Assembly: GCA_030390025.1 (NCBI GenBank)
Contig: JASTWF010000080.1
Span: forward strand, 124,001 to 188,000
Origin: Squalus acanthias
Taxonomy: Eukaryota
Direction: 5' to 3'
Length of the DNA stretch: 64,000 bases
Shown here piece after piece: positions 1 through 53,578 of the stretch (within the stretch, counting starts at the first letter, position 1; every line of letters begins with the position of its first letter). Both the position numbers and the translations under genes were made by a program. The notes under the pieces are model-generated. The model was not told where the DNA came from. It was given only the letters and a program-made list of their open reading frames with translations, and did not search any database.

Positions 1-147
1 AGGAGTGGCTCTCAGACATTGGCTCTCCATTCCTTAGCCAGGTCACCTCGATGTCTACAGGGTAAAATCCAGTAACCAGGCAGGAGAGAGTGGGCGGTTT
101 GTCCTGACTATTGGGGTCACTTCTGGAGATGAACACTTCGGGCTGAA
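1..147 (-). CDS. MHC class I-like gene copy A, alpha3 (IgC1) exon, truncated by window edge
   Basis: Polypyrimidine-cag acceptor at 150-148; reads (V)QPEVFISRSDPNSQDKPPTLSCLVTGFYPVDIEVTWLRNGEPMSESHS; near-identical to the copy B a3 exon. Confidence 0.93.
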
Positions 148-264
148 CTGAAAGGGGAAAGGGAGAAAACACAAACAGTAGACAGACACCGAATGGAATG
201 GGAGAACGGTTTCATAGATCTGTGAAGTTAGATCAGAACATGGGATAAAAACTGAAATCAATAC

Positions 265-540
265 CTTTCCTTTCAAAATATTCCTTTCCAGCTCGCAAAT
301 ATAATGTTAAATCATTAACAAATCCTTGTTCTAGATGTGCTTTCCAATACTTGTTCCAGGATTCATCCGAATTCCATTTCTCCATTGTCTTCACTGAATT
401 GTGATTGGTTGCGACCCATCTCATTCTGTCTGGCTCTAAACTAAGATAGTCCTTTCCGTCATATCCAACACGCATCGATCTCTTAATGGAGCCGTCGTCA
501 GTTATTTCAACAATTGAAATCCATTGAAAAATGTGAAGTC
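265..540 (-). CDS. MHC class I-like gene copy A, alpha2 exon
   Basis: 276-bp phase-1 exon bounded by ag and gt; GLHIFQW...GYDGKDYLSL...VKTMEKWN...LYLRAGKEYFERK; contains no cysteines. Confidence 0.94.
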
Positions 541-3337: not shown

Positions 3338-3598
3338 CGGATGTCTGGTTTGTCCCCTTCATTATCGTATTCAGATTCTCCTTTGCCTTGCCTGACCGTG
3401 TGTTCCCGAGATCTGTGAGATATTCCCAGTATTCCACATCGAAAGCGTCTGCCATGAACTGCTGCCTGGGGATCATCCGACGGATATCAGTGTCATGATA
3501 ATTAAGTTGAACTCCCTTCACCATCGCAACATTAGTAACCTCGGGAAAGTCACTAATGCCAGAGATTGCTGTGTACATCACAGTAAGTGAGTTAGTGT
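3338..3598 (-). CDS. MHC class I-like gene copy A, alpha1 exon
   Basis: 261-bp exon, tttacag acceptor and gtaag donor; DTNSLTVMYTAISGISDFPEV...EYWEYLT...IMKGTNQTS with the N86-type glycosylation site NQT. Confidence 0.94.
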
Positions 3599-6668: not shown

Positions 6669-7302
6669 GTGCTGTGAGAGAATTCAGAAATGAACAGAAG
6701 GGAAACAGTGATATTTGGGAAGATGAAGTGCGATGCCATGGGGTGCGGTCACTCTAGGAACAGTCTGACTGTCGACCAGGGGTGATGGACAATCAGGGGC
6801 AGCAGCTCCACTGTGCTTCACAGATCCTGTAATGACCACTTTACACATGGGCAGTAGGGGCCCAAAGGATGTTGGTGGTGGATTGTCTGAGATAACCTGG
6901 CCTATTCAACCACGAGGGCATCACAGCTGAGCCTGGCGTGGGTTAAACATGGATTATCCTCCCCGCACAGTTCAGAACACTTTAGTCCAGGAGAGGTGAA
7001 GCTGTTTCCCGTCTCCCAAACAATGTGAACATTAAAATTGCCCATTTCAACCATTTTCCACTTGCTACAAGCCTCTCTGCTCTCCGTATTCCTGCGTGTT
7101 GCTGTCAGGAGGCCTGCGCACAACTCCCACCGCAGGCTGACGGCCTGTGCTGGCTCCAATGGTGTGAAATATCAGGCAGGATGTAGAACCGGCGGCCGAT
7201 CAAACATCACCCGTTTCAAACTCTCGCCAAAAGCTCAAAATCACCCACACACACAGAGAGAGAGAGAGAGAGTGAGAATGGAGGGATGAGTTCTGTACTT
7301 AC

Positions 7303-7354
7303 CGGGAGAGACCCAGGAAAAACACAGGGATATGGAGAAAAGGATCAGCAACAT
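7303..7354 (-). CDS. MHC class I-like gene copy A, leader exon
   Basis: ATG at 7354, hydrophobic signal MLLILFSISLCFSWVSP, phase-1 donor gtaagt; paralogue at 40738-40789. Confidence 0.9.
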
Positions 7355-7424
7355 TCTGGGAATCCACTGCCCCTTTTCCAATCGGTGACTGGGAATAAAA
7401 TACTCCCAGTGAGTCACATCTACT

Positions 7425-7590
7425 GTTTATAGACTGAAAAATACCCCAAATAAACATCAAGTCAACCCAGGCTCCACTTTCCTGTTTATCTCGAGGGTGA
7501 CTGATTGGGTATTTTTCTTAGAGTAACCAATTAGAGGAATTAACAGTCGCCTGTCACCAGTTACTGGGAGGATCAAACTCAGGCAGATTG
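7425..7590 (-). promoter_or_regulatory. Copy A promoter: TATA-like box, CCAAT and S-X-Y module
   Basis: S-like CAATCT (7590-7585), 16 bp, X CCCAGTAACTGGTG-ACA (7568-7555), 20 bp, Y CTAATTGG (7534-7527); TATAAA near 7431-7426. Confidence 0.75.
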
Positions 7591-7847
7591 AGAGTCAGCC
7601 TGTGAATCAGAAACTAGAGAGAGACTGAACCAGCCTGGGACACCAGCTCCAGTGTAAAGGGAGGAGACACTGAGATCCCGGGCTCCCCCTCACAGTGAAC
7701 ACACTGACACTGGTCCCCCTCCCCCGGAAACCTTAACACTGGCTCTGCTCCAGACTGGAGTAACACCACAACATCTTACAGTTATCGACCACATTTAATA
7801 GAGTGAACATCACACGGGACATCACAGAGCATCTCACCGAGCGGGGG

Positions 7848-9109
7848 AGAGTGAGGGGAGGGGGTCAAACTAACAGAGAGTGAGGGGAGGGGGTCAAACT
7901 AACAGAGAGTGAGGGGAGGGGGTCAAACTAACAGAGAGTGAGGGGAGGGGGTCAAACTAACAGAGAGTGAGGGGAGGGGGTCAAACTAACAGAGTGAGGG
8001 GAGGGGGTCAAACTAACAGGCAGTGAGGGGAGGGGTCAAACTAACAGAGAGTGAGGGGAGGGGTCAAACTAACAGAGAGTGAGGGGAGGGGGTCAAACTA
8101 ACAGAGAGTGAGGGGAGGGGGTCAAACTAACAGAGTGAGGGGAGGGGGTCAAACTAACAGAGAGTGAGGGGAGGGGGTCAAACTAACAGGGAGTGAGGGG
8201 AGGGGGTCAAACTAACAGGGAGTGAGGGGAGGGGGTCAAACTAACAGGGAGTGAGGGGAGGGGTCAAACTAACAGAGTGAGGGGAGGGGGTCAAACTGAC
8301 AGGGAGTGAGGGGGGGGGTCAAACTAACGGAGTGAGGGGAGGGGGTCAAACTAACAGAGTGAGGGGAGGGGTCATACTAACAGGGAGTGAGGGGAGGGGA
8401 TCAAACTAACAGGGAGTGAGGAAAGGGAGTCAAACTAATAGAGAGTGAGGGGAGGGGATCAAACTAACAGGGAGTGAGGGGAGGGAGTCAAACTAACAGA
8501 GAGTGAGGGGAGGGGATCAAACTAACAGGGAGTGAGGGGAGGGAGTCAAACTAACAGAGAGTGAGGGGAGGGGGTCAAACTAACAGAGAGTGAGGGGGGG
8601 GAGTCAAACTAACAGAGAGTGAGGAGAGGGGGTCAAACTAACAGGGAGTGAGGGGAGGGGTCAAACTAACAGGGAGTGAGGGGAGGGGATCAAACAGGGA
8701 GTGAGGGGAGGGGGTCAAACTAACAGGGAGTGCGAGGAGGGGGTCAAACTAACAGAGAGTGAGGGGAGGGGTCAAACTAACAGAGAGTGAGGGGAGGGAG
8801 TCAAACTAACGGAGTGAGGGGAGGGGGTCAAACTAACAGGGAGTGAGGGGAGGGGTCAAACTAACAGAGAGTGAGGGGAGGGGGTCAAACTAACGGAGTG
8901 AGGGGAGGGGGTCAAACTAACGGAGTGAGGGGAGCGGGTCAAACTAACAGAGTGAGGGGAGGGGGTCAAACTAACAGGGAGTGAGGGGAGGGGGTCAAAC
9001 TAACAGGGAGTGAGGGGAGGGGGTCAAACTAACAGGGAGTGAGGGGAGGGGGTCAAACAAACAGAGAGTGAGGGGAGGGGGTCAAACTAACAGAGTGAGG
9101 GGAGGGGGT
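7848..9109. repeat. 29-bp G-rich minisatellite upstream of copy A
   Basis: About 43 units of gagagtgaggggagggggtcaaactaaca. Confidence 0.95.
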
Positions 9110-9838
9110 TGTAAGATTTCAATTGATCTCAGAGTTCTTGGACAAGACACCAATAGGCAGCAGCCAGTAAGTTTGAGCAATAGATCAGATTTATTAAGCT
9201 TACAGCGTAATCAATACTTAACAACAGGCGATAGTTTTAACGAGTAGCTCGCAGACCTTGGTCTCTGGAGCCTCTCGGACACAGATGACGTCGTCTTAAG
9301 TCTGTTCCTTTGTTCTCGCAGTAAGTCTGTGTAAAGTTGTTCTTTGAGTGTCGAGGTCTTAACCCTTTTCTCATCAAAAGTTCGCTTGGCCAGTGTCCAT
9401 AGTCTTTAACAAATCATCTTCTTTAATTGGTTCCAATGGTCAAAATACCATCGTCACTCAGACTAAGGGTAGCTTCTTGCCTTTCCAGTATTTATCCTGC
9501 AACTTTACCCTGTTCATCGTTATCTTGTTTATAGTTCTTCACCCCATTGGAATTCATCTTATCTCTCTTATTCTAGGTTCCCTGGTACAAGCAGTGTTAA
9601 GGAAACTCTAATTAAGCTTAGCATTATAATACATTATTTACCAATTTAACCTTCACTCGCAGCCTGTGGCTGTTTGTTATCAGAGCTGAGTCAACACTGC
9701 TTTTGACTGTCTCCGCGGCTATATTCGAACAGTCTTTAATGTTTCCATACCCACAGGGAATTATGGGTAAGATTAGTTGGTCAATGGCTACCCTTGAATT
9801 TATACATGAGATTTCTCTAAATACCAGTCTTTCGTACA
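9110..9838 (-). repeat. 3' LTR (729 bp)
   Basis: TGTACG...CTTACA on the minus strand, preceded by a polypurine tract, poly(A) signal near its end. Confidence 0.7.
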
Positions 9839-10259
9839 GTCCCCACCTCGAGGATGAAATGTTTCAAACATTGATTCCTCGACTATTTCAATCTATTCTC
9901 TGACAAGCGTTGTTGCAAATTGGAGTCCTGTAATTGAGGGGAACGGAGCGCTTCTCAAAGGAGGTTTTATCCCCCTTGTCATTATAGGTCTGGGTTCTAA
10001 CTATGACATTCCCAGGGGCCGACCCTTTACTATTGTCATGGCTGAGGGACACCCCGGGGTCTCCCTAACCATCATGTCGGCCGTGCTGAAATGCCTTTCC
10101 TTCCAGTGCGTCCCAGTCTATCATTTCTCCTCCGCCCGCTGCTCCTACTGCTGAATCATACGATCTGGCAGTGGTGACCCTGATCTGACCCCGCCTGGGT
10201 CTCCTCTACATTGCTTCGGATCTTCTCTTTCGGTGTACTTAATTAATTTGTTGGTGCTG

Positions 10260-10745
10260 CTTAATCATAGGCATGAGTACACAATTGGCTTATCCATCGA
10301 AGTCTTACTACACGGGTTACATATATCAAATACACTATCATTACAAGTTGGACAACTAACTGAGCGTGTGAATTAATTCGAACCTAAGGGTGTGCTGATA
10401 TATTAAGCCCAATATCCCACCAGTGTGAGTTTCCCCTATGCTGTTAATTTCAATATCTATTCTCGAGTTGTCTTGCTCCAAAACATCAAAATGCTTCAGG
10501 GAGGAGTTCAGTCACATCATGAGCTCACTGAAACCCTCAGACAACAGGGGACTGTAGTATCCGAATTGTGCCACATAATTGTGCAGCTCATACTTAAGTA
10601 TCTCATTTACTGTCAGTTTCACTTGAGCATAGGTTTTGATATTGAGTAAAACGAGTTGGTTGATGGGACAGGTCCTGTTCGACCCGTAGATCATGGTAGT
10701 TGCGGTAGTAGTGACACAGGAGGCACCACCAAAACCACCTCATTC
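10260..10745 (-). pseudogene. env-like C-terminal remnant (heptad, Trp-rich and TM segments)
   Basis: Broken frames CVTTTATTMIYGSNRTCPI...LNSSLKHFDVLEQDNSRIDIEINSIG / HWWDIGLNISAHP*VRINSHAQLVVQLVMIVYLIYVTRVVRLR; splice acceptor ttttgtag near 10780; lies at the env position upstream of the PPT. Confidence 0.5.
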
Positions 10746-13041
10746 TGGATTCGTTCTGGTTTTTCCCACGAGCTGTTACCTACAAAACACAATTATTACA
10801 GTCACAGTTAAATTCAGTCTTACAATCATTTCACGCGACAACTAATCAACAAATCAGATCTCTCTTTTACTCGTATCCATCTTGTGGATAATTCATGTTA
10901 AACATGATTTCTCCTCAGCGCTCAATTGTCCCAATCCAAATTTCATGTAACTCTCCACTTCAACTACGATTTCATTCCCTCTAACAGGTACCAGTGTGTT
11001 TAACTCTATTCTGATTGTTTCATTAGTTAGATAGTCTCTCGATGGAGTATGCGTCAATGCTTTAAAAGTTGTCTCACTCTCCTGAGCCACATTAACCATT
11101 TCATGTCGGGCTGTTGTCAAGTAACTGAGCATGTCTGAGACCCGTTCTTCAGTGCAGATTTACCATATATTTCCGGATGATAATTGCTCCATACGCACAA
11201 ATCACATTTGCACACTTGTACCGGTATCTCAATATCATGCCAAACGTGCCATCCGATACAAGCCACTCTCGGGCTTTCAGATGATCCTATCAAAAGATTG
11301 TAGTTGTCTGGAGATCTTTGCTCATCTTCCTCTGCATGGTCCCGATGTCTTGGGTAGTGGCCAGACTATCAATTCAGTTTTCTTAAAAAGTACATAGGCA
11401 AGACACAAATGTCTCCAAGAGAAAGCTGTCAATTTACTATTTGTAACTACACTTTCCTGACTTTCACTAGAAAGTTAGGAACATTTCCATTTGATGGTGT
11501 AATTCTCCTGTTTCTATCTTACACCCTCAATCACTTCCTCTCTCCATTTTACACATCCCATTAATTATCATTCATATCTCATTCATGAGCCCTGGAGGAA
11601 CTTTACTGTCCAGTACAATATTTACGATAGAAAACCATAGATCAAACATTCTCACTTGGTCCAAGTTATTAACATTTTTTATTTATCATTATTTTAGAGG
11701 ATCTTTTATTTTCCCAAAAGTAACCCAATATATAGTGCCTGAGTCCATTTTGTCATTTCAAAATTATCCCAAAATCCAAACAGCAGTATTGTTGAACTGA
11801 TCGGTTTTGTCAATGTTCAATTTCATTTCTATCAATTTATCTTATCAATTCCAATTTCAGAAACAAGTGATTCTCAGGCTAGGTGGTTTACACAGTGTTT
11901 TAACATTAGAGACAGAAGTGTTACAATTAGTTTACAAGATAACTTCCATATAACAAAAGAAAGCAGGGAATCCATTGTGGCTCTGCTTAAGAGCCCAAGG
12001 GGTTAATTTATCACATCATAATTTACCTTGTGTCAATCTGGGGAAATATTAACTTAAAATTAAGAAACTTAAGTTTAATAATGTCCAATATCTTTAAATT
12101 TCATTCAGCAATACTAAAGTTGTTGCTCGGTGAACTTAAACAGCTGTCAGTGGAAAGGGTTAACTCCTTTGCAGGTTTTTAAGAAGGTGGAGCGAAACAT
12201 TGTCAGGCGCACGCAATTGCGTCACTTTGCGTAAATTTAAAAATACTTTCGCGATCGAAAAAGACAGTTGTGTTTTCACACTTTAACTAAACACGAACAG
12301 AACAGATAAAACAAAACAAAACAGCACATGCTTGCAGGAAACAGTAAATTACGTCATATTTCTTATTGTCCTTTCTTCAGATGCCTTTCCAAATGACTGT
12401 AAAAACATTGAATACAACTGGAGAAAAATTAGTTTTTCACATTCAAACAAATCAAATCAAATCAAACCGCTTTGGAAGATTTCACCATAGCAACCACGAT
12501 TCCAAGGTTAAATCTTAGACGGAAACTTAGGGGTAAAAATTCAGTTGGTTGCGCCTCCCGTTAGCGCCTTAAAAGGGCGCTAATGGGGCGTTAAGGCGCT
12601 AACGCCCGGGCGCAGCGCTGTTTGCGCCGCTCGAGAACTTAACTTGAGATTGTGCGGCGGCGCTAAAGCTTACCGCTGCGACCACCTGCGCGCGCAGATT
12701 GTGACGTCATTCCGTGGTGCAACGCCCTTGGGGCGCCCCGGAGCGGAAATTGAGTGGCGCCCCCTGCCTTACCGCCTGGCGCTTCCAACGACCGGAAGAC
12801 TGGAACGTTATCAATCGGTGTGGGGCTGGGGGGGGCGCTATTTAAAGGGGGCCTCTTCCTGTCTTTTTCTGTGGTCGACATTTATGCACCACTCGTTCTG
12901 AGAGAGAGAGAGAGATTCGGAGAGAGAGAGAGAGAGACTTCTACATTGACTCAACGCTTTGTGAGGTAGTTTTGCCTAGTTCATCCTAACTTTGCTGCTA
13001 CTTTCGTTGCTGTACCTCATTACTTTTCTGGCAAAGAGAAT

Positions 13042-14202
13042 ATGGGGGCTGCAATGATTGGGGGCGTCGTCCTGCTCCAGCTCAATCGGAGGATAGTGAG
13101 ACGCAGACAGAGAGTGGCAATGATGGCCAGACGGAGGAGGGCCATCAGGCGCATGTACAGGAGAGCTTACCCTCCCAGGGTATATCGTGAACAGCTCTCC
13201 TACATCCACATGTCCGAGGAGCTGTGTTTGCGAAGGCTGCGATTCAGCAAGGAGGTGGTCACTGAGCTCTGCCACCTGCTGCAGCCAGATCTGCAGCCTC
13301 AGCTGAGGTCCAGGACGTCTCTGTCGATGGCAGTGAAGGTCACAGTGGCTTTGAACTTCTACGCCACTGGCTCATTCCAAGCTGCTGTTGGGGACCTCGC
13401 CAATATCTCCCAGTTTGCGGTGCATCGCTGCATCCGGCAGGTCACCAATGCCCTCTTCACAAGGAGACGAGACTTCATCTCCTTCCCTATGACCCCAGAC
13501 AAGCAGCATGACCGTGCTATGGGCTTTGCGAGGGTAGCGGGCTTCCCCATGGTGCAGGGCGCCATTGACTGCACGCATGTGGCTTTGCGTGCTCCGCGAG
13601 AGAATGCAGAGGAGTTCCGGAACAGAAAGGGGTTCCATTCCTTGAATGTGCAGTTGGTCTGTGACCACAGACAGGTGATTCTCGCTGTCAATGCCCACTA
13701 TCCGGGCAGCTGCCACGATGCTTTCATCCTGCGCCAGAGTACTGTGGCAGAAATTTTCGACGCACCGCATCAGCCAGTTGGTTGGCTTCTGGGGGACAAG
13801 GGGTACGCATTGAGCACCTGGCTGATGACACCGCTCCGTGCGCCAAACACCCCTGCTGAGCTGCGGTACCAGGAAAGCCAACAAGCAACCAGGAACATTA
13901 TTGAGCGCACAATCGGCGTGCTCAAACAACGATTCCGCTGTCTGGACCATTCCGGAGGAGCCCTGCAGTACTCGCCTGAGCAAGTTTCCAAATTCGTAGT
14001 GGTGTGCTGCATGTTGCACAACATGGCAATCCTCAGGACGCAGCCAATGCCACCAGGCCTTGCAGCACCACAAGAGGAGGAGGAGGAAGAGGAGGAACAG
14101 GCCGAGGACGATGATCAGCAGCAGCACCAAGGCAGGAGGGCGGCCCACAATGGTCAAACTGCAAGGGCCGTCCGTCAACGACTAATAGCAAGCCGCTTCT
14201 AG
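13042..14202 (+). CDS. Harbinger DDE transposase (HARBI1-like), intact 386-aa ORF
   Basis: Motifs GAIDCTHV, NRKGFHSLNVQLVCD, PGSCHDAFIL, LLGDKGY, RNIIERTIGVLKQRFRCL, CCMLHN. Confidence 0.96.
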   Translation: MGAAMIGGVVLLQLNRRIVRRRQRVAMMARRRRAIRRMYRRAYPPRVYREQLSYIHMSEELCLRRLRFSKEVVTELCHLLQPDLQPQLRSRTSLSMAVKVTVALNFYATGSFQAAVGDLANISQFAVHRCIRQVTNALFTRRRDFISFPMTPDKQHDRAMGFARVAGFPMVQGAIDCTHVALRAPRENAEEFRNRKGFHSLNVQLVCDHRQVILAVNAHYPGSCHDAFILRQSTVAEIFDAPHQPVGWLLGDKGYALSTWLMTPLRAPNTPAELRYQESQQATRNIIERTIGVLKQRFRCLDHSGGALQYSPEQVSKFVVVCCMLHNMAILRTQPMPPGLAAPQEEEEEEEEQAEDDDQQQHQGRRAAHNGQTARAVRQRLIASRF

Positions 14203-14496
14203 GGCCCCTGCCATTGCTACAAACACGAATCAACCCAGCACGCAACCCCTAAGCCGGCCAAGGCACCAATAATTCCAACCACCAGCCATGTATATTTTGA
14301 ATACAGAAACTTATTTATTGTACAAACTCTGTGTGTGTCAATTCCTCATGACAAACTCATAGAAATAAACACAAAAAAACAGTCAATAACATAACTGGTT
14401 CTCACAACCTGGAGATAATGTCCAAAACACTAAACAAAAGTTGGGCCATGAACCTCGGCCTTTAATAAAAAAATGACCAGCATTTTGGCACACCTC

Positions 14497-16405
14497 CTAC
14501 TTTTTGCCCTTCGAGGGTGATCTCCTTCCCTTGCGCACTTCCCCCCTTCTAACCCTACTGCTCCTCCGTAATGGGACCTCAGTGGCTGCAGCAAGGCTGG
14601 TGGAAGGCTGCTGCTTGTCAGACCCTGACACTGCAGATGCCCCTGAAGGACGGCCTCGACCACTTCTGGGCCTGGAGGGCCCGGCTGCAGACTGCACCAA
14701 CTCTGCATGGGCGGCAGCAGTCTGTCCTACAGGCGGTGGCAAGTGCAGTGGAGAAGTGACAGTGTTGGCAGCAGGAATGCTGTCATCGTGAGAGAGGACA
14801 GCAACTCCCTGCTCGCCCGACACACTGGCACTCCCACGGGGCAGCACTTCAGCATCCGGAGCAATTTGCCGGAGAACAGATTGCTGGCCTGCTGCGGCGC
14901 GGTGACAGCCCCAGGGACATGTGCACGAACCATCGAGGATGGCAGCAGTCAGTGCTCGCGTGGCCTCAATCTGAGTCTGCATGAGAGCAGTCTCAGATGG
15001 GTTCCTGGCAGCCAGTGACTGAATTGCAGCACTAAGCTTTAGTGTGGCATCCGCCTGTGCTACAGCGAAGTGCTCCACACTCCTTGCCAGTGTCTCAATG
15101 CATTCGGGCACCCTTCCCACTGCACCCATGAGCTCAGTGTGCATGCCCACCGCCTGGCTGTTCATTTCTGCAATCAGCCGCTCCTCCTCTGCGTCCATTG
15201 CATTAGGAGTGTCTGGCATACTCTCCCTCTGGGGAGAAGGCTCCCGTTCTTCCCTCCCCCCCCATGGCGTGGCTGCAGCCCGCTGGGTCCTGGAGCTTCA
15301 CCATCATCAGCCCCTTCCCCCCTGCTCCCCCGTTCTTCCCTCCCCCCCCAATGGCGTTGCTGCAGCCCGCTGGGTCCTGGAACTTCACCATCATCAGCCC
15401 CTTCCCCCCTGCTCCCCTCCGGGGAAGGCGTGTTCCCAGTGTGGCCATGGGCTTCCTCGGGAGAGGGTGGCACTGATGCTCCGGCTTCCTCTTCCTCCTC
15501 AGCTGCAGCATCACTCCCAGTGGCAGCTTCAGGGACCATCTCCTCAGCTGGTGAATCACCATCTGAAAGCAGGGAGGTACAAGAGTGGCTTTAGCGTGAG
15601 GACAGGGTGGCAGTAAGGGAGGAATAAGTGCAGCGAGTTAGCAAGTTGGATTGAAAGTGTCAAAGGCTGGTATTGTGAGGGACAAGTGGAAGGACAGAGG
15701 ACAAAAAGGTGATGACCTTACCATTGCTGTCCACAACGGGGTCGGCGTCCCCAGTGGCGACGGGACCGATCACCCGGCTTGCCACAATCCTGTGGACGCG
15801 CTCCTCCAGATCGCTGAGGGGTTGCAGCTGAAGCCGCCCTCCACCCGTCCGTTGCTGCTGTCTCCGATTATGAGCCAGCTTAGCCTGCAAGAAAAAGGAC
15901 AGCATCTGAGTCAATATACAGCCATGGTCTTGCCTGATGTGCCTCCCATAGGTGAATAGCCCTTACAATATGCAGCCATGGTCTTGCCTGATGTGCCTCC
16001 CATAGGTGAATAGCCCTTACTGTATGCAAAGTGTGGAATGTGTGTGTGTGTTTGATGAAAGGGCCATAGGTGTTGCATGAGTGTTGTGCATTGGGGTTTT
16101 AAGACCCTCTGGCCATAGAGTGAGGTTGAGATGGAGGGATGGAGAGGTATTGAGAAAAAGCCACTCACCCTGACGACCCGAGTGAGGTCGTTGAACTTTT
16201 TGCGGCACTGAACATGGGTCCTGGGCACCATGCTCCTGGAGGAGACGCTCTGAGCCACCTCCCTCCACACTCTTCTGAACTCGCGTGGCAAAGGCCTCCT
16301 GCCACTCTCCGGGAACAGCATGCATCGTCTGCGCTCCACTGCGTCAACCAGAGCATCCAAGGCCCGCTCGGTGAAGCGATGAGCGCGTTCTCTCACCCTC
16401 TCCAT
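14497..16405 (-). CDS. Harbinger Myb/SANT-like DNA-binding protein; exons 16405-16169, 15884-15722, 15562-14497; 1-bp frameshift near 15260
   Basis: RAHRFTERALDALV...WREVA...RTHVQCRKKFNDL, then AKLAHNRRQQQRTGGG; canonical splice sites in phase; basic C-terminus LRRSSRVRR. Confidence 0.88.
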
Positions 16406-17538
16406 GCTTGGCAGCAAAATGGATTACAGGTCTCTCCAGGCTGAGATTCAAGGCTGCAATGAGCAGGGTGTGGCTGGGGAGCAAGTGGCCCCCCCCGCTT
16501 TAAGAAGTGTCCGGCGCCAGTGTGTCTGTGTTCCCTCGCTAACTGGCAGCAGCTGCGCTGCGCTCGTGCGCTGAGGTAGCGCCTCACTCCTAGGCCTTTG
16601 CGCCTTAAGAGAGGTGTGCAGCGCCTAATTTAGCGCTCCACTCACCTCCCGGGGCGGTAAAAGTGAAGTTTCCTGTCAGTGCCGATAATTAGCGCCAGGC
16701 GCTAATATTTGCGCGCGGACGATATTTGCGCCCCAAATGGGGCGCGACCTAATTTCTACCCCTTAATCTTTTGTTAAACAAACTTTTTGTTTTTCTCAGT
16801 TTTTCCACACCAGCTTAAATTAAATTGTAATTCAAGGGTTTCTTTCCAATTCTTGGGGCACAATCTTATTCGCACATTCTTAAAACTTCCAAAATCCAAC
16901 ACAACACAAAAGGGTTAAACGCTTTTAACACAGAGATGTGGGTGGAGCTAAAACACACATAATAGACACTTTTTGTTTTAAAGACAAACTTTCAGACAAA
17001 AGGAATACTGTAACTTCTTAAACATTCATAGTTAGGAAAACTTTTACACTTTAACACACACTTCCACACAAACTGAAATTCCAGCATTTTTTTAAGGTTC
17101 CTTTCACTCAGCAAATCTTGTGTTTTATTTGTTTCAGCACAGACGTTAATAACTTCCATGTCAGTGAAACTTTAAGTTTCTCTTTTTATTTCTTTTTTTA
17201 AATCGACGTCTCAGCAGCTTTTCCTGGCTTTCCAAATCCCTGTTTTTTTCCTTTTCTTTGCTGAATTTTCAGATTGGTTAGCCTGCAATTTAGATTTTTT
17301 TCCTTCTCTATCTCCCCACTCTCCCTCCTGCACTTTATGCTTCACCTCCTTCAGGCTATCTATCAACTGTTCCCAGTGATATGCCAACGCCATTGTATTT
17401 CTGGTTTTACTTTTTAACACGCTCTTTCCCGCTCCCTTCTTTCAGAGAGAAAAATACTCAGTCTAAGCAACGATCACGTGCGTTTGACCAAGTCCCTCTG
17501 GTCCCCACAACCAGAACCTTACAACGCCCAACTCTGTG

Positions 17539-17556
17539 ATCCCACTTCTGACACCA
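17539..17556 (-). other. Primer-binding site complementary to the tRNA-Leu 3' end
   Basis: TGGTGTCAGAAGTGGGAT, 1 nt from the LTR terminal ACA. Confidence 0.9.
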
Positions 17557-17557
17557 C

Positions 17558-18293
17558 TGTAAGATTTGGATCACAGGTCACACACAGATTACCCAAAGGT
17601 TCTTAGGAGTTGTAAGGCTTTTTATTAAAGAGCTACAGTTTAAAGCATAATCAGATATTACTACATGTGATTGAAATAGATACAGTAGACACACAACCCG
17701 TGACAGATGAGGGCGATCTACGGCCCTAGAATGGAACGAAACAACTGGACAGACGGGGAGGCAGTACGGTGGTCTCGGATTGGCTGGATTCCTGCAGTCT
17801 GCGGTCACTTCCGTTGGGTCATCCCTCGAGCTGTAGGAGGTGTTAGGCCGCAGCCACCTTGGGGAAGCCTTCGCCCCTAACTGCCTGATTTCCTCTCTCG
17901 GTCATCTACTTTTATAGTTATTTCGGTGGGCTGGTGATTACCTGGTGACAATCATTTTTTCTCCATCCCATTGTTCAATTACAAGGGAGAGATTACCTCT
18001 GACAGCCCCCTCCCAGTGTCATGAGGTCATTTTCCTCCTTATCTCTGTTCTAAAGGTCTTGTTGCCCTCTTGGAGATAGCTTGTTTATCCCACAGCTCCT
18101 TGCTACATCCCGTATCAGGCCTAGTTATGTCCACTCGAAGGCCTGTTTTTGTGTTCTGACATCATAATTCAGCTCTCTGTACAGCTATTTTTCTGACATG
18201 ACTGGAATCTTTCTGTGTCATCAACTTAGGCAAACTGCTGATCGAGGGAACCCGTAACAGACTATTATTTCTTTCAATCCATGATTTCTTACA
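17558..18293 (-). repeat. 5' LTR (736 bp)
   Basis: Inverted termini TGTAAGA...TCTTACA, TATAAAA and AATAAA, adjacent PBS. Confidence 0.85.
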
Positions 18294-18821
18294 AGTGTCT
18301 GGGAGGGTGAGACGGGGTCAGGAGGGGAGTGAGATTAGTCTGACCGGGTTGAACAGGGTCTGGAAGGGTGAGACGGGGTCAGGAGGGGAGTGAGATTAGT
18401 CTGACAGGGTTGAACAGTGTCTGGGAGGGTGAGTCGGGGTCAGGAGGGGGAGTGAGATTAGTCTGACAGGGTTTAACAGTGTCTGGGAGGGTGAGACGGG
18501 GTCAGGAGGGGAGTGAGATTAGTCTGACAGGGTTTAATAGTGTCTGGGAGGGTGATACGGGGTCAGGAGGGGAGTGAGATTAGTCTGACAGGGTTTAACA
18601 GTGTCTGGGAGGGTGAGACGGGGTCAGGAGGGGAGTGAGATTAGTCTGACAGGGTTTAACAGTGTCTGGGAGGGTGAGACGGGGTCAGGAGGGGAGTGAG
18701 ATTAGTCTGACAGGGTTTAATAGTGTCTGGGAGGGTGATACGGGGTCAGGAGGGGAGTGAGATTAGTCTGACAGGGTTTAGCAGTGTCTGGGAGGGTGAG
18801 ACGGGCTTAGGAGGGGAGTGA
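18294..18821. repeat. 61-bp minisatellite
   Basis: About 8.5 units of gtgtctgggagggtgagacggggtcaggaggggagtgagattagtctgacagggtttaaca. Confidence 0.95.
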
Positions 18822-18874
18822 AAAAGTCACAAATACGTCAACAGGGGGAAAGAATCGAAACTTCACTTACTGAA

Positions 18875-18906
18875 TCACAAAGGAGCCGGCACAGAGACAT
18901 CAGAAG
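18875..18906 (-). CDS. MHC class I-like copy B, cytoplasmic exon with stop
   Basis: Strong acceptor ttttattttctcag; in phase with the TM exon; ASDVSVPAPL*; gtaagt donor after 18871. Confidence 0.65.
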
Positions 18907-19056
18907 CTGAGAAAATAAAACAGAATGTGAGAAATGGGAATAAAATATATAAATAGAGAATGTGAGATATTCTACATCACTGACTGGGCCCAGGAGCCAA
19001 TCACCTCCCAGCAATAACTAAACAGACTCACACATGGTAAATGTGCACAGAGACAA

Positions 19057-20600
19057 GGGACTGGAGGGCGAGGGACTGGAGGGCGAGGGACTGGAGGGCG
19101 AGGGACTGGAGGGCGAGGGACAGGAGGGGGAGGGACTGGAGGGCGAGGGACTGGAGAGCGAGGGACTGGAGGGCGAGGGACTGGAGAGCGAGGGGCAGGG
19201 ACTGGAGGGCGAGGGACAGGAGGGCGAGGGACAGGAGGGGGAGGGACTGGAGAGCGAGGGGCAGGGACTGGAGGGCGAGGGACAGGAGGGGGAGGGACTG
19301 GAGAGCGAGGGACTGGAGGGCGAGGGACAGGAGGGCGAGGGACTGGAGAGCGAGGGACTGGAGGGCGAGGGACAGGAGGGGCAGGGGCTGGAGGGGGAGG
19401 GCCTGGAGGGGGAGGGACTGGAGGGGGAGGGACTGGAGGGCGAGGGACAGGAGGGGCAGGGGCTGGAGGGCGAGGGACTGGAGGGTGAGGGACAGGAGAG
19501 CGAGGGGCAGGGACTGGAGGGGGAGGGACTGGAGGGCGAGGGACTGGAGGGGGAGGGACTGGAGGGCGAGGGACTGGAGGGCGAAGGGCTGGAGGGCGAA
19601 GGGCTGGAGGGCGAAGGACTGGAGGGTGAGGGACAGGAGAGCGAGGGACTGGAGGGGGAGGGACTGGAGGGCGAAGGGCTGGAGGGGCAGGGGCTGGAGG
19701 GCGAGGCACTGGAGGGTGAGGGACAGGAGGGCGAGGGACAGGAGGGGGAGGGACTGGAGGGCGAGGGACAGGAGGGGGAGGGACTGGAGGGCGAGGGACA
19801 GGAGGGTGAGGGACAGGAGGGCGAGGGACAGGAGGGTGAGGGACTGGAGGGCGAGGGACAGGAGGGGGAGGGACTGGAGGGTGAGGGACAGGAGGGCGAG
19901 GGACAGGAGGGTGAGGGACAGGAGGGCGAGGGACAGGAGGGTGAGGGACAGGAGGGCGAGGGACAGGAGGGGGAGGGACTGGAGGGCGAGGGACAGGAGG
20001 GCGAGGGACAGGAGGGGGAGGGGCTGGAGGGCGAGGGACAGGAGGGCGAGGGACTGGATGGGGAGGGACTGGAGGGGGAGGGGGAGGGCCTGGAGGGCGA
20101 GTGGCTGGAGGGGGAGGGGCTGGAGGGCGAGGGTCTGGAGAGGGAGGGGCTGGAGGGCGAGAGACTGGAGGACAAGGGACTGGAGGGCGAGGGACTGAAC
20201 GGCGAGGGACTGGAGGGTGGAGGACTGGAGGGCGAGTGGCTGGAGGGCGAGTGACTGGAGGGCGAGGGACTGGAGGGCGAGGGACTGGAGGGCGAGTGGC
20301 TGGAGGGCGAGAGGCTGGAGGGCGAGAGGCTGGAGGGCGAGTGACTGGAGGGCGAGGGACTGGAGGGGGAGGGGCTGGAGGGCGAGGGGCTGGAGGAGAG
20401 GGGCTGGAGGGCGAGAGGCTGGAGGAGAGGGGCTGGAGGGCGAGGGGCTGGAGGGCGAGAGGCTGAACAGCGAGGGACTGGAGGGTGAAGGACTGGAGGG
20501 CGAGTGACTGGAGGGCGAGGGGCTGGAGGGGGAGGGGCTGGAGGGGGAGGGGCTGGAGGGCGAGGGACTGGAGGGCGAGGGACAGGATGGCGAGGGTCTG
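19057..20600. repeat. 15-bp G-rich minisatellite
   Basis: About 100 units of gagggcgagggactg; explains the EGEGL, PSSPS and RARDW ORFs. Confidence 0.95.
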
Positions 20601-20698
20601 GTGTGAGGATCGGAGAGTGTAATAAATGTCAGTTAGAATGGGGATAACCCATTATCAGAGTGTGAGCACACACCTAGTGTGAGGATCGGAGAGTGTGT

Positions 20699-21075
20699 AC
20701 TCACTCTGTCCCTCAGTTCTACATTCCTCTCTCTCACTCTCTCCTCTCAGTGCCCTGTGCTCCCAGTACTGGAGATTCCCTACACTCACTCTGTCCCTCA
20801 GTTCTACATTCCTCTCTCTCACTCTCTCCTCTCAGCGCCCTGTGCTCCCAGTACTGGAGATTCCCCACACTCACTCTGTCCCTCAGTTCTACATTCCCTT
20901 CTCTGTCTCTCTCCTCTCAGTGCCCTGTGCTCCCAGTACTGGAGATTCCCCACACTCACTCTGTCCCTCAGTTCTACATTCCTCTCTCTCACTCTCTCCT
21001 CTCAGTGCCCTGTGCTCCCAGTACTGGAGATTCCCCGCACTCACTCTGTCCCTCAGTTATACATTCCCCTCTCTC
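20699..21075. repeat. 85-bp minisatellite next to the TM exon donor
   Basis: Units start at 20701, 20786, 20871, 20956 and 21041. Confidence 0.93.
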
Positions 21076-21085
21076 TGATTCTTAC

Positions 21086-21199
21086 CTCTCCGTTGTTTTA
21101 TCCAGATGAATATTCCAATTATCCCGATTATAACCAGTGCAGCGACTGATCCAATTATAATTCCAGGATAGGAGCGTGCACCACTGTTTTCCGGTATTT
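21086..21199 (-). CDS. MHC class I-like copy B, transmembrane exon
   Basis: tttcag acceptor and gtaag donor, 114 bp, phase 1; EIPENSGARSYPGIIIGSVAALVIIGIIGIFIWIKQRR (absent from the ORF track). Confidence 0.92.
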
Positions 21200-21270
21200 C
21201 TGAAACACATTTGAATAATATCAAGGTAGTCTTTCTTTTCCCGGATCCATTCCCAGTTCGGTGTCAACGG

Positions 21271-21455
21271 AGGGACAATTTTAACCTCACCCGCCCGTCG
21301 GGAATCTGAGGGATCGGGTCCAACGCTGGTTTTACTCCCGCCTGATCTCACTCTCCATTGGAGTCAATAAAGAGTCTCATTGATGGTGGTGTTGGACCGG
21401 CGTTGCCCCGATCCCCGGGTTACCTGCCCGGCGAGCTCGGTTCAATTTACCCCCC
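21271..21455. mobile_element. Short palindromic MITE (related copy at about 24594-24763)
   Basis: Imperfect TIRs GGGACAATTTTAACC...GGTTCAATTTACCCCC. Confidence 0.55.
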
Positions 21456-21499
21456 ATGTCTCTGTGTCCTGTCCTGGGTCCATCCCCAGGGTCACATTG

Positions 21500-23800
21500 T
21501 ACGCCCCAGGAGTCAGCATCACTGATGGATTTCACATCAAACTTCAAAGGGATGGGGAATAAATTGACTGCAGCAAACTGGGCTGAGCTGGTAATGAGTA
21601 AAGCTACAGATAAACAGTGGGGACGCTTCAAAAAAAGTACCGGGTACAATCCAACACCAGGACTTTCCCCGACAACGCAAAGACTCCACTTCTGTAGTTA
21701 GGCAACCATGGTCGACAAATGAAAGAAGTGAGAGTATCCAGGTAAAGGGAAAGGCTGACACAGTGACCAGAGATTGAGATACAGAGCACTTAGACAAGTA
21801 TCGGCTGAACAGAGAGTCAGCATGGATTTGTGAAGGGTAGGTCCTGTCTGACTAATCTAATTGAATTTTAAATTTCATGAGGAGGTCACTAACATGGTGG
21901 ATAAGGGAGTGTCGGTGGATGTTGTGTATATGGACTTTCAGAAGGCATTTGATAAGGTTCCTCACGAGAGATTATTAGCAGAAATAAAAGCTTACAGATT
22001 TGGAGCTAATCTTGTGACACGGGTTGAAAATTGGTTGGGAGGAAGGAGTCAGAGAATCGGGATAAAGGGAATGTGCTCCGATTGGCAGGATGTTCCGAGT
22101 GGTGTTCCCCAGGGATCTGTACTGAGGCCTCAGCTTTTCACCATATATATCAATGACTTGGATGAAGGAACAGGGAGTTGTATATCCAAGTTTACAGATG
22201 GCACTAAGTTAGGATGCACAGTAAAGGGACATTGACAGATTAAATGACTCAACTGCATCTGCCACAGTTTTGCCCAAGGTGGGGAAGTGTGAGATCATCC
22301 ACGCGAGATCTGAGAAAGACAGATTGGAATATTGTCTCAATGGTGACAGACCAGGAGCTGTAAAGGAGCAAAGAGATTTGGGTGTCCATGTCCACAAATC
22401 ACTAAAAGCTCGTGCCAGGGTTAAATAAAGCAATCAGAAAGGCTAACGGAATGTTGGCCTTAATCTCAAGGGGGTGAGAATAGAAAGTGAGGAAATTATG
22501 CTTCAGGTGTACAGAGCTTTGGTCAGACTACATTACATTACACAGGATTACATAGGATATACGGCACAGAAACAGGCCATTCGGCCCAACCAGTCCATGC
22601 CGGTGTTTATGCTCCACTCGAGCCTCCTCCCATCTTTCCTCATCTAAATCTATCAGCATAACCCTCTATTCCGTTCTCCTCATATGTTTGTCCAGCCTCC
22701 CCTTAAATGAATCTATACGATTCGCTTCAACCACTCCCTGTGGTAGCGAGTTTCACATTCTCACCACTCTCTGGGTAAAGAAGTTTCTTCTGAATTCCCG
22801 ATTGGATTTCTTGGTGACTATCTTATATTGATGGCCTCTATGCTCTTCCCCACAAGTGGAAACATTTTCTCTGTATCCAGTCAATCAAATCCGGTCATAA
22901 TTTTATAGACTCTATTAGGTCACCCCTCAGCCTTCTTTTTTTCAAGAGAAAAGAGACCCAGCCTGTTCATCCTTTCCTGATATGTATACCCTCGCATTTC
23001 TGGTATCATCCTTGTAAATCTTCTCTGCACCCTCTCCAGTGCCTCTATATCCTTTTTATAATATGGCGACCAGAATTGTACGCAGTACTCCAAGTGTGGT
23101 CTAACCAAGGTTCAATACAGGTTTAGCATAACTTCACTACTTTTCCATTCTATCCCTCTAGAAATAAACCCCAGTGCTTGATTTGCTTTTTTGATGGCCT
23201 TGTTAACCTGTGTCGCAACTTTTAGTGATTTGTGTATTTTACTCCGAGATCCCTTTGTTCCTCTAACCCACCTCTGGCGTACTACATTCAGTTCTGGGCA
23301 CCAAACCTCACGTAAGATATATTGGCCTTGGAGGGGGTACAGAGCAGATTCACCAGAATGATACCAGCTCAGAGGGTTACATTTTGAGGACAAAGTTGGC
23401 TTGTATTGCACTGAGTGTAGAAGGGTGAAGGGTGATCACATTGAGGTGTTTAAAATGATAAAGGGATTCGATAGGGTAGATACAGAGAAACTATTTTCAC
23501 TTGTGGTGAATCCAGAACAAAAGAGCACAATTTTACAATTAGAGCTCGGACATTTAGGAGTGAAATCAGAAAGCACTTCTTCACACAAAGGGCAGTGGAA
23601 ATCTGGAACTCTCTCCCCCAAAAGTCTGTGGGTTCAATTGAAATTTTTATGACTGAGATCGAGTGATTTTTGTTGGGTAAGGGTATCAAGGGATGTAGAG
23701 CAATGGTGGGTAAATGGAGTTGAGGTACTGATCAGTCATGATCTCATTGAATGGTGGAACAGACTCAAGGGGCCGAATGTCCTACTCCTGTTCCTATGAT
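21500..23800 (+). mobile_element. Decayed CR1 LINE (+) with a second CR1 3' end inserted antisense (about 22530-23275)
   Basis: DVVYMDFQKAFDKVPH, SGVPQGSVL, LEYCVQFWSP motifs; CR1-type 3' tails at about 23800 (+) and about 22535 (-). Confidence 0.88.
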
Positions 23801-23849
23801 CCATACATGCTCACAGAGACACACGCACACATCCAGTGCAGTTCCTTAC

Positions 23850-24128
23850 CCCACCGATAGACCTTTGCCTCTGCCAGGCTGCTGTGTTTAATTTGACAGG
23901 AGTATTGATCCTCATCCCCAGCATTCACTTCAATCTCTTTCTTGATCTGATGGGTCCCATTGTGGTTCGGTCGAACCCCCGAGGAGTGGCTCTCAGACAC
24001 TGGCTCTCCATTCCTTAGCCAGGTCACCTCGATGTCTACAGGGTAAAATCCAGTAACCAGGCAGGAGAGAGTGGGCGGTTTGTACTGAATATTGGGGTCA
24101 CTTCTGGAGATGAACACTTCGGGCTGAA
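23850..24128 (-). CDS. MHC class I-like copy B, alpha3 (IgC1) exon
   Basis: 279 bp; LSCLVTGFYPVDIEVTWLRNG...YSCQIKHSSL; gtaag donor. Confidence 0.95.
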
Positions 24129-24245
24129 CTGAGAGGGGAAAGGGAGAAAACACAAACAGTAGACAGACACCGAATGGAATGGGAGAACGGTTTCATAGAT
24201 CTGTGAAGTTAGATCAGAACATGGGATAAAAACTGAAATCAATAC

Positions 24246-24521
24246 CTTTCCTTTTGAGATACTCCTTTCCAACTCGCAAATATAAATTTAAAAGGTCAAC
24301 AAGTTCTTCTTCCAACTGCCATTTCCAATGCTTGTTCCAGGATTCATCCGAATTCCATTTTTCCATTGTCTTCACTGCAATGTCACTGGATGCGACCCAT
24401 CTCATGCTGTCTGACTCTAAACTAATATAGTCCTTTCCGTCATATCCAAACCGCATCCATCTCTTCATGGAGCCGTCGTCAGTGACATCAACAGTCCTTA
24501 TCCATTGGAAAATGTGAACTC
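24246..24521 (-). CDS. MHC class I-like copy B, alpha2 exon
   Basis: 276 bp; GVHIFQWIRTVDV...FGYDGKDYISL...KTMEKWN...LYLRVGKEYLKRK; contains no cysteines. Confidence 0.95.
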
Positions 24522-28885: not shown

Positions 28886-29146
28886 CGGCTGTCTGGTTTG
28901 TCCATTTCATTATCTTATTCAGATTCTCCTTCATCACCTCGTAACGCTCCTTCCCCAGACGATTGAGATAATTCCAGTCTTCCACATTAAGAGTGTCTGT
29001 TATGAACTGTTGTCTGGAAGCCATCTGCTGAGTGTTACTGTCATAATAGGATAACGTAACTCCATTGATCATTGCCACACCTACAAACTCAGGGCAATCA
29101 GTGGTGCTGGAGATTCCCGTATAGAGCACAGTAAAGGAATTACTTT
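28886..29146 (-). CDS. MHC class I-like copy B, alpha1 exon
   Basis: 261 bp; ESNSFTVLYTGISSTTDCPEFVGVAMINGV...IMKWTNQTA; acag acceptor and gtaag donor. Confidence 0.95.
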
Positions 29147-39436: not shown

Positions 39437-40737
39437 TAATTGGAAGCATAAAATTACAAAGAGATATCGATAGATTAAATGAAATGGCAAACTGTAGCAA
39501 ATGGATTTCAATGTAGGAAAATGTGAGGACCTAAAAAGGATAGAACAGGGTACTTTCTAAATGGTGAAAAGCTAAAAACAGTGAAGGTCCAAAGAAACTT
39601 GGGGGTTCAGGTACATAGATCATTAAAATGACATGAACAGGTACAGAAAATAATCAAAAAGGCAAATGGAATGCTGGCCTTTATATCTAGAGGACTAGAA
39701 TACAAGGGGGTAGAAGTTATGCTACAGCTATACAAAGCCCTGGTTAGACCACACCTGGAGTACTGTGAGCAGTTCTGGGCACCACACCTCAGGAAGGATA
39801 TATTGGCCTTGGAGGGAGTGCAGCGTAGATTGACCAGAATGATACCCGGACTCCAAGGGTTATGTTACAAAGAGAGATTACACAAACTAGGGTTGTATTC
39901 CCTGGAATTTAGAAGGTTAAGGGGTGATCTGATCTAAGTTTTCAAGATATTAAGGGGAACAGATAGGGTAGGTAGAGAGAAACAATTTCCACTGGTTGAG
40001 GATTCTAGGACTAGGGGGGCAGAGTCTAAAAATTAGAGCCAGACCTTTCAGGAGTGAAGTTAGGAAACACTTCTACATACAAAGGATGGTAGAAGTTTGG
40101 AACTCTCTTCCGCAAACGGCAATTGATGCTAGATCAGTTGTTAAATTTAAATCTACATTTTTGTTAACCAAAAGTAGTTAGATATATTTCTTAAGGCGAA
40201 AGGGATTTAAGGGATATGGGGAGAAAGCAGGGACAGGGTACTGAATTTGGATGATCAGCCATGATCTCATTAAATGACGGAACAGGCTCGGGGGGCCGAA
40301 TGGCCTACTCCTGCTCCTATCTTCTATGTTTCTATGTTTCTATTACTAAGGGATATGGGCCAAAGGCGGGTATATGGAGTTCGGTCGCAGATCAGCCATG
40401 ATCTCAATGAACGGCGGAACAGGCTCGAGGGGCTGCATGGCCGACTCCTGTTCCTATGTTCCTATGAGAATGATATAGAGAGTGAGGCAGAGAGAAAGAG
40501 ATACGCAGAGAGAAAAATAAAAAGAGAGACATAAAGAGCCGTTTAGAGACTGAGACACAGAGAGGGAGATCGAGCGAGTGTGAGATATCCCACTGTGAAT
40601 ACCATATCACGACATAGATCCACTGAGAGGCTCACTCCCAGTAAAATCCCAGGGCATTTCCTGCCCAGACCCTGAGCTGGAGAAGTGAAAGTGACAGAGA
40701 GTGAGAGTGAGAATGGAGGGATGAGTTCTGTACTTAC

Positions 40738-40789
40738 CGGAAGAGATCCAGGAGAAACACAAAAATATGGAGAAAAGGATCAGCAACAT
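40738..40789 (-). CDS. MHC class I-like copy B, leader exon
   Basis: MLLILFSIFLCFSWISS, phase-1 donor gtaagt. Confidence 0.92.
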
Positions 40790-40859
40790 TCTGGGAATCC
40801 ACTGCCCCTTTTCCAATCGGTGGCTGGGAATAAAATACTCCCAGTGGGACACATCTACT

Positions 40860-41064
40860 GTTTATAGACTGAAAAATACCCCAAATAAACAGCAAGTCAA
40901 TCCAGGCTCCACTTTCCTGTTTATCTCCTGCTATGTTCACTTCCCTGATCTCCAAGTGCAGAGCCAGCGGGTGACTGATTGGTTACTCTGAGAAAAATAC
41001 CCAATTAAAGGGATAAACAGTCGCCTGTCACCAGTTACTGGGAGGATCAAACTCAGGCAGATTG
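40860..41064 (-). promoter_or_regulatory. Copy B promoter: TATA-like box, CCAAT and S-X-Y module
   Basis: CAATCT 41064-41059, 16 bp, X 41042-41029, 20 bp, TTAATTGG 41008-41001. Confidence 0.75.
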
Positions 41065-41614
41065 AGAGTCAGCCTGTGAATCAGAAGCTAGAGAGAGACT
41101 GAACCACCTGGGACACCAGCTCCAGTGTAAAGGGAGGAGACACTGAGATCCCGGGCTCCCCCCTCACAGTCAACACACTGACACCGGTCCCCCTCCCCCG
41201 GAAACCTTAACACTGGCTCTACTCCAGACTGGAGTAACACCACAACATCTTACAGTTATCGACCACATTTAATAGAGTGAACATCACACGGGACATCACA
41301 GAGCAACTCACCGAGCGGGGGAGAGTGAGGGGGTCAAACTAACAGGGAGTGAGGGGAGGGGGTCAAACTAAGAGGGATTGAGTTACAGGCTGCAATCTAA
41401 TCGGGAGTTCGCGGGGTTTACACCTCGGCAATCAGTGTAAGAGTAGGGGAGAGACTCACTGATTGAGTCATTCTGCAACAGGAGTCAGGAATCTTCTCCA
41501 CCTTCACCCCAATCTCACCAGCAAGGTGATGGTGGCTGTATCATCAGGTGCGACCGGGAGTTGTACTCTTACACTGCTGTCCCTGGTGTGAGGAGGGTGC
41601 GGTGCACAGACTGA

Positions 41615-53000: not shown

Positions 53001-53578
53001 TTGTTTCTCTTTCTCTGGCTGATTTCCCCCCGCCCCCTCACCTCCCTAGCCAGAGGTGCAAAGACCAATTGAAGTACACCTACTACAGCCTCTGGAATAG
53101 ATCCTCTCCCACATGCGTGTGCTGGTGGATCAGCAGCTGAAGCCTTTCCGACACATGGAAGATTTGATCGGTTTGTTGCCCAAAGTCAGAGTGTGCGAAT
53201 CACTTGTACAGATGCTGCACTGGAAGGGTTCTCAGCCTGTATGGATGCATTGCTCCTTCAGGAGGGACTACAGTCTGGAATGGTTGCTTCCCTCTGTGGA
53301 TGTACTGTTGTGATGTCTTCACACTGTAAACAGCCCTCTTGAAAACATTGCACCTTCACAGTTTCTCACTCTTGTGGATGTATTGATGGCGGGAGAGGTT
53401 CGAGACACTTCCTGAAATTTGGGATGGTGCACTGGAACCACTGCTCACCTGTGCGGGGGGCTAAGAAACTTAGGCAGTTCTCTGAAGCTCAGCACTTACT
53501 GAGGATGTGCTGGTCTCCAGGAGGGGGCTCTCTGATCACATGCCGGCTCGGTTGCAAACCTCACGCTCCAGCTATTTC

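Follow-up and report, generated by a model that had tools for sequence, protein, structure and literature searches.

For mammalian MHC class I genes (HLA-E and Qa-1), within-species homogenisation of exon 4, the α3 exon, has been described together with binding exons that keep their orthology (Joly and Rouillon 2006, PMC1403747, in the text available). In newt non-classical class I-like genes, conversion is concentrated in α3 according to the accessible part of PMC12863176. For teleost classical class I genes, the accessible part of PMC6523485 describes ancient trans-species α1 lineages, recombination in intron 2 and interlocus homogenisation of medaka UAA and UBA. Multicopy UEA has been mapped in the sharks considered here, as far as the available portion of PMC10751288 shows. 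It is quite probable that the two genes reported here carry different trans-species α1/α2 exons (heads) on a near-identical α3 and transmembrane (TM) part, which repeated ectopic recombination likely homogenised and selection likely left with distinct heads.

Gene layout and the class I cluster

The window, i.e. the whole stretch of 64,000 nucleotides analysed, corresponds to positions 124001-188000 of contig C3663 (G000). Window positions 148-540 contain the α2-α3 intron and the α2 exon of gene A, an MHC class I-like gene on the minus strand. Gene B is located upstream of gene A on the same strand, with a gap-free alignment at +23,981. The window contains the following features:

1..147, minus strand: 5' part of the α3 (Ig C1) exon of gene A, continuing past the window start
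148..264, minus strand: intron 3 (α2-α3) of gene A, 117 bp, beginning of the probably homogenised block
265..540, minus strand: α2 exon of gene A, without Cys101 and Cys164
3338..3598, minus strand: α1 exon of gene A, A-type
7303..7354, minus strand: leader exon of gene A, ATG at 7354, with a promoter/5'UTR block to ~7850
8124..24245, minus strand: 3' block of gene B (intron 3, α3, intron 4, TM and downstream DNA), ~91-97% identical piecewise to the DNA 3' of gene A
18875..18906, minus strand: predicted last coding exon of gene B (short cytoplasmic tail and stop), from likeness to the tails of database homologues
21086..21199, minus strand: TM exon of gene B, with the α3-TM splice found in three RNA runs (one of them, X8, only guessed to be RNA)
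23850..24128, minus strand: α3 exon of gene B
24129..24245, minus strand: intron 3 of gene B, 117 bp
24246..24521, minus strand: α2 exon of gene B
28886..29146, minus strand: α1 exon of gene B, B-type, single copy in the assembly
40738..40789, minus strand: leader exon of gene B, ATG at 40789, with a promoter/5'UTR block upstream

Both genes have the leader, α1, α2, α3 (C1-set) and TM exons and the phase-1 introns of MHC class I heavy chains. The α3 copy of gene B matches the Pfam C1-set (E=6e-19). A search of gene B for an additional small cytoplasmic exon between TM and its final exon found none.

Between the two genes, a 410-aa open frame (window 12970-14199, plus strand) presumably resembles a Harbinger/HARBI1-type transposase. 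A 14-copy array of 84-bp units resembling C2H2 zinc-finger repeats is present at window 53545-54791 (minus strand). The promoter block (window 7255-7850 and 40690-41382) translates to the C-terminal tail of the sevengill-shark gene model P0032, which suggests that this model, or real transcripts, may extend into the promoter of the next gene.

Contig C3663 is repeat-rich and separate from the chromosome-sized contigs. It carries ten α3+TM units, seven of them with α1 and α2. Five A-type genes stand in tandem (g21, g44, g72, g102 and gene A), gene B is a further unit, and the C-type gene g576 is located ~430 kb off on the opposite strand. Three units (g204, g333 and g701) comprise leader, α3 and TM without α1/α2, and the α3 exons of g204 and g333 are identical. 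Copy g44 (C3663 44504-48138) equals gene A (123869-127596) in α1, α2 and α3 and is B-like from near the TM exon; it arose by very recent duplication, and recombination has switched its sequence within intron 4. The α1 exon of g72 (C3663 86514-86771) encodes two extra cysteines at positions 55 and 59 (HLA-A2 numbering) and is followed by a 13.5-kb intron 2. A lone α2 fragment of the same family with stop codons is found on a chromosome-sized contig (C13 52390735-52390900, L012 and L053).

Divergence gradient and the α3-TM block

The hand counts from which the first-pass annotation had derived a steep gradient between the paralogues are reproduced. In α1, 41/86 whole codons and the first residue (D/E) differ, leaving 45/87 identical; in α2, 28/91 differ and 64/92 are identical with the split Gly counted. 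The 49 aa of α3 inside the window differ by three nucleotides (19, 103 and 108), each of which changes a residue, and the 117 bp of intron 3 differ at base 152 alone. For the entire α3, with the neighbouring genome stretch included, 6/91 aa and none of ~63 synonymous sites differ. Exon by exon (NG86), dS and dN are 0.84 and 0.34 in α1, 0.28 and 0.16 in α2, 0 and 0.03 in α3, and 0.04 and 0.02 in TM. The silent divergence is thus strongly non-uniform (Fisher tests: α1 29/58 vs α3 0/63, p=4e-12; α2 12/54 vs intron 3 1/117, p=4e-6; α1 vs α2, p=0.003). Gene conversion or exon shuffling, one of the explanations proposed initially, is supported by this non-uniformity and by conflicting exon trees; the uniform synonymous divergence that would have spoken against it did not occur.

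In non-coding DNA, genes A and B differ at 11/103 positions in the last part of intron 1, at 19/56 at the start and 6/45 at the end of intron 2, and at 31/997 and 8/500 in intron 4. The earlier view that intron 3 is far more conserved than the adjacent exon stands as a count, but the intron is not unusual compared with the next one (1/117 vs 31/997, p=0.24); it is merely the opening of a long low-divergence block. Promoter and leader are similar, as had been noted (21/291 plus a 39-bp indel; 6/52), but are more diverged than the α3-TM block (p=0.0035). The leader peptide is near-identical even across shark species. The final A/B difference in α2 is at window position 274, 10 bp before the 3' end of the exon. 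No significant identical run was found between A and B in α2, and no sharp breakpoint is detectable there.

From intron 3 to just beyond TM, the ten copies show 4–63 differences in 1575 gap-free columns. Across the multi-kb α3-TM block, divergence between the ten copies, the inverted ones included, does not exceed 4%, and the copies do not sort by head type (A-B 33 and B-C 38 differences in the 1575 columns). Gene B and the inverted C-type copy have 3440 bp in common at 97.6%, starting 24 bp after α2, and the 3' DNA of gene B matches that of gene A piecewise over ~16 kb. Among pairs of informative sites, 511/1378 are incompatible, and neighbouring incompatibilities number 7 vs 19.3 expected (0/3000 shuffles as low). 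The block is a recombination mosaic. The TM exons of g72 (C3663 70318-70431) and the inverted g701 (704559-704672), 630 kb apart, differ at 2/114 positions and share a run of private changes, with other copies 8-11/114 away, most of them 10-11/114; judged from the sequence, they are a candidate short conversion tract. Cross-type conversion tracts were sought in 45 pairs and none passes Bonferroni correction; the same-type pair g44-A124 passes at 0.007 and g44-B is borderline at 0.058.

A simpler history, in which shuffling (unequal crossovers and segmental duplications) took place once or a few times in the past and put old α1/α2 cassettes on one α3-TM donor without recurrent conversion, would account for the ~16 kb of 3' DNA common to gene B and the A-type array, for α3-only copies that derive cleanly from the C-type locus by duplication and deletion, and for the lack of any individually significant cross-type tract. 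It is considered unlikely, since horn shark, sevengill, sawshark and other sharks show a within-species likeness of α3 as well, which requires repeated events. The conflicting partners within the mosaic (g44, A-like then B-like; g72 and the inverted g701 in TM) also speak against it.

An assembly artefact, with α3 and its flanks collapsed or mis-joined between paralogues, is very improbable, even though the contig is repeat-rich and α3 exons are identical in g44/A124 and in g204/g333. There are ten separate α3 copies with private variants, and in run X8 of a different study, presumed to be RNA, a spliced contig without introns joins B-type α2 (0 differences) to α3 (1 difference) and TM. A collapsed α3, which the first-pass annotation had named as a refuting outcome, is accordingly not borne out. 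The α3-TM joint was also seen in two raw RNA runs (14 and 4 reads). DNA contig depth, which is not a copy number, is ~81 over α3 vs ~11 over the α2 of gene B and fits many α3 copies. Furthermore, proteins of other species show a like pattern.

Old duplicates whose α3 and introns were kept alike by purifying selection alone are an extremely improbable alternative. No other domain is as well conserved between species as α3, but the likeness (96-98%) extends to synonymous sites and to kilobases of intron that contain repeat remnants, and α3 divergence between species exceeds that between the types of one species. The segregating α3 changes are 14 N : 4 S. The likeness of α3 does not result from constraint, because this is the neutral ratio.

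Under repeated ectopic recombination, the tandem direct copies A and B would probably have exchanged by unequal crossing-over near the α2/intron 3 boundary, and the inverted C-type copy ~430 kb off would need non-reciprocal transfer (gene conversion); the two processes are not separable in a single haploid assembly. The α2 exon adjoins the block and may have been partly overwritten, which would explain its intermediate divergence. Tracts entering α1/α2 may be selected against if the types bind different ligands or receptors, and a common α3 could serve contacts to beta2-microglobulin or a co-receptor equally for all types. The large non-homologous introns flanking α1 may in addition shield it mechanically from exchange. 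Homogenisation would have been repeated in each shark lineage.

Domain trees, selection and family assignment

The α1 tree contains 46 rows and the α3 tree 49, the partial database protein P0015 being left out of the latter. Other species are represented by predicted proteins, and in some of these database models exons from adjacent genes may have been fused. The α1 tree contains three groups. In the B-type group (100/99), gene B clusters with proteins of sawshark, sevengill and horn shark; in the C-type group (100/98), g576 clusters with proteins from eight other species. The A-type α1 clusters with a third set of proteins in a large, less resolved group, and the type of gene A is common to proteins of sawshark, bamboo shark and basking shark. 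Most likely, the α1 types predate the squalomorph/galeomorph split, because they are common to both.

The α3 rows cluster by species or order instead (13 label changes vs 34.2 when shuffled; 0/200 as low), and the α3 of the present shark clusters with that of sawshark and sevengill shark with a support of 93. All three are squalomorphs. The nearest neighbour belongs to the same species for 16/44 α1, 24/46 α2 and 38/47 α3 domains. AU tests were performed on 20 hand-picked rows, with type groups named from the α1 tree and then tested on α3. A single clade of the shark's own genes is rejected for α1 (p-AU 3e-7) and not rejected for α3 (0.40); in α3, a B-type clade (p-AU 5e-40) and a C-type clade (1e-6) are both rejected. 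In six overlapping, non-independent quartets, sites with type pattern vs species pattern number 113 vs 2 in α1, 44 vs 9 in α2 and 0 vs 54 in α3. The mean between-species identity is 84% in α3 vs 54% in α1. For α2, a quick tree with weak support was calculated. Taken together, α3 groups by species and α1/α2 by lineage, silent sites included, as is typical of concerted evolution. Whole-gene or α3-based trees would therefore misassign orthology in this shark UEA-like family, and α1 is the marker to use.

Strong diversifying selection on the ligand-binding exons, also proposed in the first-pass annotation, finds no support for A-B: dN/dS is ~0.4 in α1 and ~0.6 in α2, groove enrichment is lacking and the α1 types predate the split of the shark superorders. 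With groove positions taken, as an assumption, from HLA-A2, A-B differences fall on 9/21 groove vs 32/65 other positions in α1 and on 6/17 vs 22/74 in α2; enrichment was absent in all four tests made. Selection alone is ruled out as the cause of the gradient, because the gradient is synonymous too and dN is below dS in α1 and α2. A history of recent duplication with subsequent strong diversifying selection confined to α1/α2 is accordingly highly unlikely, and for A vs B the synonymous gradient refutes it. Recent A-type α1 pairs do have dN>dS (0.082 vs 0.026 in one example), and the changes lie close to where the α1 helix ends, but the surplus of N changes in A-type copies does not reach significance (19 N, 3 S, p=0.22), the A-B dS of 0.84 in α1 exceeds dN and the α1 types are common to distant sharks. 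Diversifying selection is a possible minor force among the A-type copies.

The ligand-binding exons are old and spared, not recently accelerated. Selection probably spared α1/α2, to judge from how they have persisted; α2 is the strongest case, with type-specific sites that reach to within 10 bp of the block. Synonymous changes were not significantly clustered near replacements in the A-B comparisons of α1 and α2. Between A and the C-type in α1, clustering (p=0.03, one of six comparisons) and a 30-nt identical run (p=0.003) were observed, both uncorrected. Because they survived recombination that erased differences in adjacent exons, the three α1 types are good candidates for having separate ligands or receptors that have been conserved over long periods.

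The A/B cluster most likely represents UEA, which is said to have been introduced by Almeida et al. in 2021 as a shark non-classical class I lineage. UEA is presumed to occur across sharks, to be missing from rays and chimaeras and to comprise three sublineages in the binding region. All α2-exon matches are from sharks (39/39, from 51 candidates), although the search was word-limited and supports absence in rays weakly. The three α1 groups and the ten α3+TM units on one contig are consistent with a multigene family of this kind. A location next to brd2/b2m is likewise assumed for UEA; BET-domain matches were found on three other contigs, one of which (C3751) carries other class I genes, and none on C3663.

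Two other families were considered and rejected. For classical class Ia (UAA), nine peptide-anchoring residues and a Cys101-Cys164 bond are taken here as hallmarks. Gene A keeps 6, gene B 5 and the C-type 4 of these nine anchors, and there is no Cys at 101 or 164 (HLA-A2 numbering via the alignment in the PMC10751288 supplement). Dogfish UCA (AF515705) is distant by eye in α1, α2 and α3 and has only the loss of the α2 cysteines in common with the cluster. A nurse-shark reference (PMC10751288 supplement) matches all three domains by eye. It is labelled UCA in a file without a UEA label, and its α1 is closer to gene B (60/87, hand count) than gene B is to gene A (45/87). It differs from the dogfish UCA of the same file, has the α3 start of the cluster and lacks the α2 cysteines.

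Head-less copies and comparison with known systems

Downstream of the window, contig C3663 contains the three head-less copies and a GTPase frame:

C3663 200058-206907, plus strand: head-less copy (L079)
C3663 336891-330383, minus strand: head-less copy (L084)
C3663 696532-704672, plus strand: head-less copy (L096)
C3663 230499-235726, plus strand: 66-bp phase-1 exon and GTPase ORF (L100)

Upstream DNA and leader of the head-less copies are as in the C-type gene. The copies have lost α1 and α2 by deletion, because the C-type likeness stops and resumes 73 bp after the C-type α2. A separate α1/α2 lineage was sought between leader and α3 of all three copies, and only repeat-derived ORFs were found. 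Leader, α3 and TM are intact, leader and α3 are both phase 1, and by their reading frames these copies could encode an α3-only membrane protein. No leader-α3 splice joint of g204 was present among the 15 of 81 joints listed, the output being swamped by repeat reads. At a site private to the α3 of g204/g333, 58/62, 42/42 and 10/10 reads carry the other letter, in runs whose organism label differs from that of the best DNA runs.

An intact 1,682-aa ORF of a URGCP/VLIG-type GTPase (230,681-235,726) follows on the same strand, 23.6 kb downstream of the g204 TM. One acceptor of the 66-bp exon would lead to a 16-aa tail; an acceptor 11 nt upstream would lead into the GTPase frame, in frame with the TM exon. 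Gene models of this UEA-like family in several sharks end in tails from such 66-bp/GTPase 5' exons, in either frame and all stopping early. Behind g333, g576 and g701, in the orientation of each gene, there are related copies of the GTPase 5' exons (28 matches). Many more copies are scattered among the class I genes (C3663 286540-313312, 476583-503427, 756956-806243 and 930041), several of them as short tandem truncated units. No MHC_I or C1-set domain was found in the best 120 of 315 GTPase homologues.

As a tentative and rather doubtful reading of these arrangements, α3-TM may be an interchangeable chassis bearing one of three ancient heads or none. The C-type and head-less copies might splice in frame, through the 66-bp exon, into the VLIG/URGCP-like GTPase ORF, giving an MHC class I-derived receptor with a cytoplasmic GTPase of the interferon-inducible type. 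Confirmation by transcripts would give the head-less copies and the GTPase-derived tails greater importance. No description of UEA α3 homogenisation or of a very large GTPase-MHC class I fusion in a shark was found in the open-access literature searched.

The preferred reading, old heads on a repeatedly homogenised α3-TM part, can be compared with the known systems directly. The cluster resembles shark UEA in being a multicopy, shark-only class Ib family with three α1 types and lost peptide anchors. As in mammalian class I genes, α3 is homogenised within the species and the ligand-binding exons are conserved; as far as the available text of PMC1403747 allows a comparison, the shark differs in that its types span two superorders and in that the homogenised unit also takes in the TM exon and kilobases of intron sequence. 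The domain trees of the newt genes largely agree in the accessible part of PMC12863176, whereas the α1 and α3 trees of the shark conflict outright. Teleosts and the shark both have very old α1 lineages recombined on shared downstream exons, with α1 older than α2; the teleost cases in the available portion of PMC6523485 are mostly alleles of classical loci, whereas those of the shark are paralogous non-classical loci. The shark gradient is thus a clear new instance of a pattern already known for MHC class I.
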